A DNA stretch of 15,743 bases, from positions 1 through 15,743 of the forward strand of contig JBBRLJ010000069.1 of the NCBI GenBank assembly GCA_038231435.1, read 5' to 3'. Positions 2,565 to 15,743 of the stretch are shown here, piece by piece. A program made the position numbers and the translations under genes. The DNA is from Planctomycetota bacterium (GTDB lineage Bacteria > Planctomycetota > UBA11346). The stretch's first letter is position 1, and each line of letters starts with the position of its first letter. Under the pieces are notes generated by a model. The model was not told the origin of the DNA and did no database searches. It was given only the letters and a program-made list of their open reading frames with translations.

Positions 2565-2810
2565 TCACGCGATCCGCGGGCTGCGCCCGCACTCGCTGCG
2601 CTCGTTTGTCCGGCTGCGCCGGACGGATCGCTACGACAGCCGGGGGGTCGAGGACGACCCCCCCGGCAACGCGCCTGTCGGCGCTGCCCCCCTCGCGAGA
2701 ACGCGGATGTTCTGCAAGCACGCGCGGGCTGCGCCCGCGCTCGAGATCACGCGATCCGCGGGCTGCGCCCGCACTCGCTGCGCTCGTTTGTCCGGCTGCG
2801 CCGGACGGAT
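2565..2810. repeat. REP/BIME-like cluster: two identical 64-bp direct repeats (2565-2628, 2747-2810) plus extra hairpins
   Basis: tcacgcgatccgcgggctgcgcccgcactcgctgcgctcgtttgtccggctgcgccggacggat occurs twice. Additional hairpins at 2639-2667 and 2722-2740. Lies between convergent genes. Confidence 0.9.
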
Positions 2811-10995: not shown

Positions 10996-11063
10996 CGCGA
11001 GCTCCGCTCGCGTGCGCCTATGGGGGGCTACGGCCCCCCATGAACGCGCTCCGCGCTGCCCCC
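10996..11063. repeat. Hairpin cluster including copy B of the dispersed palindromic repeat
   Basis: cgcgagc-tcc-gctcgcg (10996-11012), atggggggc-tacg-gccccccat (11020-11041), gcgc-tcc-gcgc (11046-11056). Homologous to 170-211. Confidence 0.7.
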
Positions 11064-11124
11064 TTCGAAGAAACGGGAAGGGCAGGCGGGGCCAGACCAC
11101 CTGCGACGCAATGGCGATTTTTTC

Positions 11125-14432: not shown

Positions 14433-15305
14433 TCAGCGCACGGCGGTAGGCATGCGTCCCGAGATTCGATCGAGCGCGGCGCTGATCGCGGGCGACAGTG
14501 GGCGCGAGCTGGCGCTCACCTCTGGAGCGATGGCGCCCGCAGCGACGAGTTCGTGGTAACGGGCAACCGTCCATTCCGTGCCGTCGAACTCCAATGCGCT
14601 GAGGTTGTCCACCCAGTCGCCTGAATTCAGATAGGCGATCTCGCGCGGGCCATCGGTTCCGGCGACGAGCTGGCGCTGGTGGCACGGCATGTGGATGTGG
14701 CCGCAGATGATCTGGTCGACGTTGCGTTGGGCCGCCTCGCGCAGGCACACCTCCTCGAACGAGGCGATGTGGCGCGCGGCTTGGCCGAAAAGGCGCTTCG
14801 AGCCGACGGCGATGCGCTGCCGCGCCCTCGGCAGGCCGAACCACGCGCGCACCGCGTCGTGCCAGCAATCGGCGTCGACAAAGCGGTCGTAGAACCAGGC
14901 GCCGACCGCCGCCATCCAGCGCGGAGTCGCAAGCTGGTCATCGAAACGGTCACCGTGGTGGATCCAGGTCTTCTTGCCGCCGATGTCCCACACCATCTCG
15001 TCGACGAGGTGCACGCGGTCGATCGAGAGATCCGAGAATGTGCGCAGGGCGGCATCGTGGTTGCCGGTGACGTACCAGACCGGGACTCCGTCCTGCGCGA
15101 AGCCGAGGATCTGGCGCAGCACGCGCTCGTGCCCGGGCAGGAACGCGCGGCTGCGGAATTGCATGATGTCGACGATATCGCCATTGAGGATCAGCGTGCG
15201 TGGCGCGATCGAGTCGAGATAGGCGGACAGCTCGGCCGCATGGCTGCACTTGGTGCCGAGGTGCACATCCGAGATGATGGCGACTTCCAGCTCGCGTTTA
15301 CCCAT
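14433..15305 (-). CDS. Calcineurin-like metallophosphoesterase, UDP-2,3-diacylglucosamine diphosphatase (LpxH-like) family
   Basis: ISDVHLG, LNGDIVD, GNHD, HGDRFD, CGHIH, YLNSGDWV. Confidence 0.88.
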   Translation of the reverse strand: MGKRELEVAIISDVHLGTKCSHAAELSAYLDSIAPRTLILNGDIVDIMQFRSRAFLPGHERVLRQILGFAQDGVPVWYVTGNHDAALRTFSDLSIDRVHLVDEMVWDIGGKKTWIHHGDRFDDQLATPRWMAAVGAWFYDRFVDADCWHDAVRAWFGLPRARQRIAVGSKRLFGQAARHIASFEEVCLREAAQRNVDQIICGHIHMPCHQRQLVAGTDGPREIAYLNSGDWVDNLSALEFDGTEWTVARYHELVAAGAIAPEVSASSRPLSPAISAALDRISGRMPTAVR

Positions 15306-15370
15306 TCGCCTAGGCTATCCGCGCAACCCTCTGCACATGCTGCAAATCCTACAGGTTTGGACTTCTATAT

Positions 15371-15743
15371 AATCGGGGGCTCCGCCCCCAAACCCCCACG
15401 GCCTTTGTCGCCCCTCACTCTGGCCGCCGGGCGGCCAGAGTGTTTGCGTCATGGGCTGCGCCCATTATTGACGCAAACCGGGGCTCGGCGGCCGCTATAA
15501 AATCGGGGGCTCCGCCCCCAAACCCCCACGGCCTTTGTCGCCCCTCACTCTGGCCGCCGGGCGGCCAGGGTGTTTGCGTCATGGGCTGCGCCCATTATTG
15601 ACGCAAACCGGGGCTCGGCGGCCGATGTTAATCGGGGGCTCCGCCCCCAAACCCCCACGGCCTTTGTCGCCCCTCACTCTGGCCGCCGGGCGGCCAGGGT
15701 GTTTGCGTCATGGGCTGCGCCCATTATTGACGCAAACCGGGGC
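15371..15743. repeat. Tandem array of 124-bp structured repeats (15371-15494, 15501-15624, 15630-beyond window end)
   Basis: Units are identical except A15439 versus G15569/G15698. Linkers are ctataa and atgtt; period 130 then 129 bp. Each unit has three hairpins and a closing stem. Confidence 0.95.

Follow-up and report, generated by a model that had tools for sequence, protein, structure and literature searches.

The closest known counterparts of the repeat family reported here are the REP, BIME and REPIN sequences (PMC3733652, PMC3116915, PMC8266576). In the available parts of these reports they are characterized by hundreds of extragenic palindromic copies, by an arrangement as singles, inverted doublets and tandem clusters with patchy, lineage-specific expansions, by ends that supply stop codons, by CT at junctions, by use as a target for insertion sequences (ISs) and by the lack of a target duplication, and our family resembles them in these respects, its arrangement apart, where inverted pairs and tandems occur but singles dominate. 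According to the available part of PMC8266576, the enzyme TnpA-REP cuts folded single-stranded DNA (ssDNA) between C and T, 5′ or 3′ of the hairpin, and for E. coli REPs an influence on translation has been reported within a range of 0-17 nt from the stop codon (PMC12306157, in a passage citing Liang 2015). ISs that target REP repeats at a specific site have been described as well (PMC1525189); ISL3 is not named in the part of that report that was available. Our literature search found no description of the present family, relatives of which may be listed in the supplements of PMC3733652, PMC2267715 and PMC3372372 or in closed journals, and the motif string led only to a paper on Torque Teno Mini virus. 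The genomes that carry the elements are uncultured and postdate the repeat catalogues of those three reports.

We analysed a window of 15,743 nucleotides that is the complete contig C69 of a Planctomycetota genome (G000; 5.2 Mb in 108 contigs, 87.6% complete). At its right end, Tandem Repeats Finder reports a tandem repeat (15365-15743) with a period of 130, 2.9 copies and 97% matches, which agrees with an earlier note on this DNA that had proposed at least three near-identical units continuing past the window edge. The unit length of 124 nt given there needs correction: the start-to-start spacing is 130 and then 129 nt, each unit consisting of a 121-nt body (15374-15494 in the first unit) and a leader of 9-10 nt. 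All of the helices named in that note, namely hairpin 1, the closing helices, the 12-bp hairpin and the bulged hairpin, are present (Table 1), and the units have folding z-scores of -4.0 to -6.8 on both strands, with none of 200 shuffles equally stable. The note had also counted a single change between units; the A/G difference at 15439 was found again, but position 15370 in the leader also differs, and the third leader differs more.

Because C69 is the whole window, the array stops at an assembly break, and the sequence to the right of 15743 is unreadable. A unitig of 144-145 nt spans the junction between units 2 and 3 at approximately single-copy depth in three of four sequencing runs, which come from one study and one of which may be the source run. 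This bridge shows that the tandem is not a collapse artefact, and an origin of the array in an assembly artefact, raised in the earlier note as a counter-case, is thereby ruled out. The array had been held to be neither a tRNA nor a CRISPR locus, and so it proved: a tRNA search of the array gave no match, there was no Rfam CRISPR match and, unlike in a CRISPR array, the whole 130-nt unit repeats and only the 9-10-nt leader varies. An Rfam scan of the array, suggested earlier as a check for a structured RNA, returned no family at gathering score (best E 0.19, 14.6 bits versus a cut-off of 291), and a promoter search at the locus found nothing. The G001 orthologue of the neighbouring metallophosphoesterase gene has no element upstream. 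Elsewhere in the window (2565-2810), a further small repeat lies between convergent genes as two identical 64-nt copies 182 nt apart; it contains three TNC-loop hairpins, and its hairpin matches four sites in G000.

Table 1. Coordinates of the array units, of their structural parts and of related features; positions refer to the window unless contigs are named.
Feature	Position	Strand	Remarks
Array unit 1	15365..15494	minus (coordinates on plus; presumed to fold as minus-strand ssDNA)	Subfamily A element
Array unit 2	15495..15624	minus	Two differences from unit 1: 15370/15500 (leader) and 15439/15569 (hairpin 2)
Array unit 3	15625..15743	minus	Cut by contig end; leader 1 nt shorter and unlike the other two leaders
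Leader of unit 1	15365..15373	plus	T-rich, begins CT; junction end of the element
Hairpin 1	15375..15389	minus	G-run/C-run stem, GNA triloop on minus; present in sister family C as well as in subfamilies A and B
Third C-run (G-run on minus)	15393..15397	minus	Run length follows the hairpin-1 stem in G000
5′ arms of closing helices P1 and P2	15399..15414	minus	Include near-invariant internal-loop strand 15404-15409; pair with 15480-15494
Hairpin 2	15416..15442	minus	12 bp; most variable arm, covarying; many copies with minus-strand G.A mismatches
Hairpin 3	15443..15477	minus	Bulged, GNA triloop on minus
3′ arms of P2 and P1	15480..15494	minus	Contain the second near-invariant loop strand
Metallophosphoesterase gene (PF00149), context	14433..15305	minus	Start faces the array, 60 nt away
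Family C variants	170-223, 294-332, 11021-11064	GNA-type loop on minus	Three occurrences
IS-carrying contig ends in G000	C6, C7, C8, C11, C18, C20, C60, C64, C70, C85		

The array is one instance of a dispersed family. A profile built from 73 copies gave 297 matches in G000, which form 182 clusters with a total of 33.8 kb; only one cluster overlaps a called gene (3,961 genes, called within the analysis). The clusters comprise 102 singles, 39 tandems and 41 with an inverted pair, their junctions include 43 tail-to-tail and 8 head-to-head arrangements, and 82 clusters lie near contig ends. Parsing yielded 179 full elements, 72 of subfamily A, to which the C69 array belongs, and 107 of subfamily B, which has an extra hairpin inserted after hairpin 1. 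On the minus strand, GTAG precedes this inserted hairpin in 105 of the 107 B copies, and relatives carry substitutes.

Of 48 genomes in the same Planctomycetota family, 26 contain the core pattern, with 0-171 matches per genome across the family and with genome-specific variants; a second pattern is present in 13 of 23 family genomes and in none of 377 genomes from elsewhere in the phylum. Across GTDB, at least 48 loci were obtained: the title is Planctomycetota for 36 and 'bacterium' for 3, a further 3 are near-identical to loci of G000 although their metagenome-assembled genome (MAG) carries another label, and 6 are chance matches; for want of profile support, 6 of these loci and 3 of 97 metagenome loci were dropped. 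Loci identical or near-identical to those of G000 in other MAGs (L025, L039, L049 and contig C38 of G047) are probably mis-binned contigs; they were kept out of cross-genome counts from the gene-end comparison onward, and L134 enters that comparison once. Several 1-2-kb contigs of G000 itself (among C86-C108) look foreign by content (C102, C106, C107), which fits its contamination figure of 3.35%. A whole-unit search gave only two 24-nt matches in the phage collection and none in the plasmid collection, and the core pattern had no match in viral contigs. Some metagenome contigs contain longer variants (L234, L243, L253, L275, L301, L304, L308), in which P2 is extended or hairpin 3 has a bulged insert; both invariant loop strands are kept.

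The fold is conserved by covariation. Among 60 diverse cores, 95.6% of the cells of the three-way junction are paired, and two-sided changes occur at 22 of 31 pairs. None of 500 shuffles reach this value, a test inflated by sequence relatedness, and slid registers used as controls fall to 36-48%. The two internal-loop strands are near-invariant (150 and 149 of 157 copies). GNA triloops and sheared G.A pairs are stabilizing in ssDNA. On the minus strand, 333 of 345 triloops are GNA (289) or ANA (44), compared with just two GNA loops on the plus strand, and G.A stem mismatches number 168 on minus versus 18 on plus. Loops and mismatches together point to ssDNA of the minus strand as the folding form, and they decide the question of strand in favour of the GNA loops that the earlier note had set against a T/U.G wobble on the plus strand; that single wobble is unrepresentative, as G.T wobbles are even across the family (41 on plus, 35 on minus). 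The lengths of the hairpin-1 stem and third run in G000 are 5/5/5 in A, 4/4/4 in B and mostly 6/6/6 in sister family C, and they agree in 123 of 139 G000 copies versus 61 of 123 others, with an anchoring offset in some copies. An intramolecular triplex of hairpin 1 and the third run (G.GC, T.AT) was considered and was not confirmed in an independent test on viral matches: ACCCC follows an AGGGG stem in 21 of 114 cases, yet also follows a GAGGG stem in 8 of 110, and the predicted CACCC follows a GAGGG stem in 2 of 110.

On balance, we lean towards the view that the family is a non-autonomous, REP/BIME-like mobile ssDNA element that is moved in trans by an HUH-type enzyme. The suggestion of a tandemly amplifying non-autonomous element had been made for the array alone, and it is supported by the hundreds of dispersed copies, the tandems, the nested insertions and the presence or absence of copies at orthologous gene ends. 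By size, tag and linked RAYT, the family is not itself a REP/BIME/REPIN family. Compared with what the available parts of the REP reports describe, our elements span 120-170 nt and form a covarying three-way junction in place of a 20-40-bp palindrome, just one of the 72 A copies has a GTAG/GTGG or CGTC foot tag, most clusters (102 of 182) are singles, the leader is hypervariable and we found no flanked RAYT. In E. coli REPs, tag and cut are on one strand (PMC8266576, available part), whereas the CT of our elements lies opposite the GNA-loop strand.

Other described classes share some of these traits. In size, folding and position at 3′ gene ends, the elements are like the bacterial MITEs treated in the available part of PMC3184786 (ERIC, 127 bp; RUP; Correia); both defining features are missing, however, and the family is not a MITE family. 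Terminal inverted repeats were found in 0 of 42 solo copies and target-site duplications in 0-2 of 42, at or below permuted means, with an ill-defined 3′ end and 60 nt searched. The earlier note had considered that the unit might be a known REP or MITE family without an associated gene; REP-like behaviour and the lack of a linked gene stand, whereas our searches brought up no known family to which it could belong. IS200/IS605 derivatives are peel-and-paste ssDNA transposons with hairpins near their ends and no target-site duplication. Like the non-autonomous members of that group (PMC6006769, available part), our elements have ssDNA hairpins near both ends, lack a target-site duplication and have their junction about 10 nt from a terminal hairpin. 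Unlike them, the elements show only a purine, mostly G, before CT where IS200/IS605 has a conserved 4-5-nt AT-rich 5′ target, their far end is variable and no TnpA/TnpB element with the same ends was found in the incomplete G000 assembly. The class 3 TnpA-Y1 repeats (Quentin et al. 2018, PMC6006769, available part) also occur in Planctomycetes and have G.A mismatches in their stems; CCGAG, which might correspond to their CnGA foot, precedes a helix on the presumed active (minus) strand of our elements. Those repeats, however, are 25-30-nt hairpins of other sequence, and no class 3-like TnpA-Y1 gene was seen in G000 by motif or profile.

The two ends of the element differ. The leader starts with CT in 128 of 174 elements versus 385 of 3801 control sites, and the base before CT in subfamilies A and B is G in 89, A in 18, C in 16 and T in 4 cases. 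Younger copies interrupt older ones, and the same CT marks the joint between tandem units. At the far end, which varies, there is usually a terminal hairpin; in solo copies this hairpin follows the 3′ arm of P1 and varies itself, and it is missing between tandem units, as at C69. In the mechanism that we envisage, an HUH-type (tyrosine) strand-transfer enzyme supplied in trans would bind hairpin 1 and/or the invariant internal loop, cut about 10 nt from hairpin 1 and join the element to its target. Cutting and rejoining of a circle, or rolling-circle run-on, might then produce tandems such as the C69 array.

Subfamily A is also a target. An IS, presumably ISL3-like, is inserted at one site, the junction of hairpins 2 and 3, at 10 of 10 IS ends and in both orientations. 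We rejected the idea that this insert is an autonomous form of the element, as it is an IS with ends of its own, and by analogy with the REP-targeting ISs in the available part of PMC1525189 it appears to be a passenger. The IS is known only from these 10 ends, and its transposase is missing from the G000 assembly, which indicates that multi-copy genes drop out of that assembly. At positions 1-135, C69 opens within the 3′ end of another transposase, which we take to be ISL3-like, adjoining a family C variant; this 41-aa piece had no Pfam match.

The search for a mobilizing enzyme covered incomplete MAGs throughout (G000 at 87.6%), in which the absence of a gene is not proven. Among 268 neighbours of the 182 clusters in G000, no gene recurs beyond large paralogue families, and none recurs between close element pairs, around genes flanked by modules on both sides, in 36 loci of low-copy relatives or in 94 metagenome loci. 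A cognate protein just right of the window, as had been envisaged, is therefore unlikely: the contig ends there, and no neighbour family recurs at the 182 clusters or at the related loci examined. G000 encodes one Y1 gene above the cut-off and one weaker relative, with no hairpin-1 module within 1 kb of either; the Y1-like proteins of G000 are encoded at C28:22443-23490 and C25:40581-41336. In relatives, an element lies near a single locus in each of two sets of Y1 loci, one of 30 (a degenerate copy at a distance of 1.3 kb) and one of 20. A subclass 2.3-like Y1 is present in 8 of 12 genomes with at least 10 copies versus 10 of 22 with none; because its presence does not track the elements, we rejected it as the mobilizer. 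The Y1 locus L001 (G000, contig C28, 21759-24935) encodes a 348-aa subclass 2.3-type protein; a tyrosine integrase and two tRNA-like genes adjoin it, and it has its own short direct repeats on both sides. In G019, a class 2 Y1 gene (L088) is flanked by its own inverted REP-like pair (1404-1443/2058-2097), unrelated to the element family. No Y2 gene was found in G000 by a search whose control also matched nowhere, and searches for RT, Rep_trans, DUF559, IS110, TnpB and IS200-type TnpA in G000 gave no match. Two GIY-YIG genes of G000, which we read as UvrC-like and as a small stand-alone nuclease, do not adjoin elements.

Elements of subfamilies A and B are mostly sited at gene ends. In 143 of 174 elements, a stop codon on the same strand precedes the hairpin-1 end, in 124 of these at 0-17 nt, and the far end shows no preference (42 versus 35). 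The stop begins within the T-rich leader in 75 of 87 cases; TAG (34 of 87) and TAA (15 of 87) are over-used relative to 808 and 247 of 3,939. The C69 array is among the 31 exceptions: it faces a gene start, and its leader neither holds nor follows a host stop codon, unlike the usual case. We rejected an AT-rich target preference by itself, as T-rich sites in general are at stops only 1.1% of the time. On the replication strands, elements number 54 versus 33 and genes 1054 versus 853, a similar direction from which the element count is not separable. No functional class was found among the neighbouring genes in G000. We propose that elements are retained at gene ends since their leader provides a stop codon or comes after one, and many copies are probably co-transcribed as 3′ UTR sequence, as a secondary effect.

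Sister family C, with 98 copies in G000, is shorter and consists of leader, hairpin 1, inserted hairpin and C-run, with no junction core. Its strict pattern occurs 68 times in G000 versus once in each of two congeners and not at all in 45 other family genomes, which indicates that the system was active in the G000 lineage. CT stands at a fixed place in 91 of 98 copies, preceded by G in 50 and A in 33 of the 91. Of the 72 copies that are not nested, 27 have their first base directly behind a called stop; a stop-like triplet in front of CT proved to be a real gene end in 27 of 31 cases versus 12.3% expected. Nested junctions have 0-3 additional bases in front of CT, and the element may thus bring some of the stop codon with it; even then, family C hits gene ends far more than spacer sequence, and its base-exact placement suggests some true targeting as well.

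Hairpin 1 with the third run is the part that A, B and C share and is likely the mobility signal. In viral contigs, this module was found at 83 and 94 loci, and weakly in plasmids; it also forms repeats with its C-run in giant-virus contigs. The viral loci (L331-L507) adjoin CRESS, microvirus and inovirus Rep, capsid or assembly genes, anellovirus ORF1, and DGR RT or target genes. The GNA strand is coding in inovirus, DGR and most microvirus loci and non-coding in anellovirus loci; for groups of known virion polarity, it is presumably the packaged strand. The module thus resembles the GC-rich hairpins of DGR targets (PMC3240598, available part) and of intergenic regions of ssDNA viruses, next to whose genes it lies. 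Unlike the DGR hairpins, which have 4-nt GRNA loops on the sense strand, our elements, which are much larger, have a 3-nt GNA loop that lies antisense to host genes.

Against cut-and-join by an HUH-type enzyme stand the lack of a cognate enzyme in our searches, the missing GTAG tag of subfamily A and the position of CT opposite the GNA-loop strand, together with the near-unique leaders and the 0-3 extra bases before CT, unlike the prediction of a clean cut; nor did the sequencing-run unitigs contain an empty allele of the same species. In 18 near-identical tandem pairs, the leader diverges by 27% per base versus 2.1% for the core; 112 of 119 leaders are distinct and tied weakly to core relatedness, and 33 junctions into known element sequence carry 29 distinct leaders. 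These data lend some weight to an alternative that is possible though improbable: a mobile ssDNA element that moves by a route other than RAYT/IS200-type cut-and-join, in which hairpin 1 and its G-run, as a generic ssDNA signal, recruit a host or helper polymerase or primase, the element is copied onto an exposed 3′ end at a gene end and the leader is partly rebuilt in each event. The coincidence of family C triplets with true gene ends, set against the low rate for T-rich sites, is consistent with such a route, as are the viral loci beside ssDNA-virus and DGR genes, where the strand is consistent in most groups. However, no polymerase, primase or Rep is linked to copies, and the module is short and of low complexity, so that its virus likeness may be convergence. 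Among dispersed copies, loops, linker and tail are uncoupled from the stems as well, so module shuffling together with drift at unpaired sites may suffice for the leader diversity, and the recurrence of family C leaders (the commonest in 14, 13 and 8 copies) shows that these leaders are inherited. With comparable reserve, we offer a speculation covering all three groups: A, B and C might form a class of very small mobile elements of ssDNA whose insertion is directed to the bases just behind a stop codon and is linked to the termination of transcription or translation. An enzyme other than RAYT/IS200 would read a signal made of a hairpin and a G-run, which ssDNA viruses and DGR targets would also employ, and would rebuild the leader at each jump.

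The siting at stops also allows for a host-selected RNA or DNA signal at gene ends (a 3′ UTR stabilizer, or a translation, termination or processing signal) that is spread by recombination and kept for its function, with arrays arising by local slippage; we regard this as unlikely. The 124 stop-proximal copies at 0-17 nt coincide with the range reported for E. coli REPs in the available part of PMC12306157, structural conservation is strong, and an insertion at the end of pilM is common to G001 and G002. The same insertion is absent in G000, and presence at orthologous sites is patchy: 22 of 84 upstream segments from relatives could be aligned to a G000 gene end, and 19 of these 22 ends have no A/B element in G000, with the stop usually in the same place or a few codons away. 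Inheritance of copies and their gain or loss thus both occur. Copy numbers of 0-171 among relatives and neighbours without a functional class also speak against a host signal, as do the missing wobble bias to the mRNA strand, the stable loops on the template strand, a T-run that on the mRNA strand precedes and does not follow hairpin 1, and the C69 array, which faces a gene start.

A retro-element, in which a structured RNA is copied by an RT and the A-rich minus-strand tail acts as in target-primed reverse transcription or DGR adenine mutagenesis, is very unlikely. The leader is indeed 57% T on the plus strand, giving a variable, A-rich minus-strand tail, and the module lies beside DGR genes in phage contigs. 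However, RT searches gave no match in five element-rich genomes (G000, G002, G020, G062 and G063), although an RT is present in 33 of 48 family genomes, there is no target-site duplication, near-invariant adenines (150 of 157) stand in the minus strand of the internal loop and the loops are of DNA type. Least probable of all is the single-locus ncRNA array with its own adjacent protein that near-identical structured units in tandem and an unread right side had suggested: C69 is one of 182 clusters, 39 tandem-only and 82 contig-end clusters occur elsewhere in G000, there is no Rfam match, no recurring neighbour and no G.T strand bias, and loops and G.A mismatches point to minus-strand ssDNA.

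For those who work with such genomes, the family matters in that it breaks assemblies, 83 of the 216 contig ends of G000 ending in it, and will mislead ncRNA screens. How REP-like repeats move and come to be sited at gene ends is still an open question even for E. coli. To this question, the non-autonomous, REP/BIME-like element that we favour brings unusually readable material: its large ssDNA fold covaries and has two invariant loop strands, its junction end is fixed and nested insertions lay the junctions open, and there are in addition a recently expanded, stop-placed family C and an IS that targets the element. If the enzyme is not a RAYT, the family represents a new ssDNA mobility system; if it is a RAYT, the substrates of these enzymes extend far past simple hairpins.
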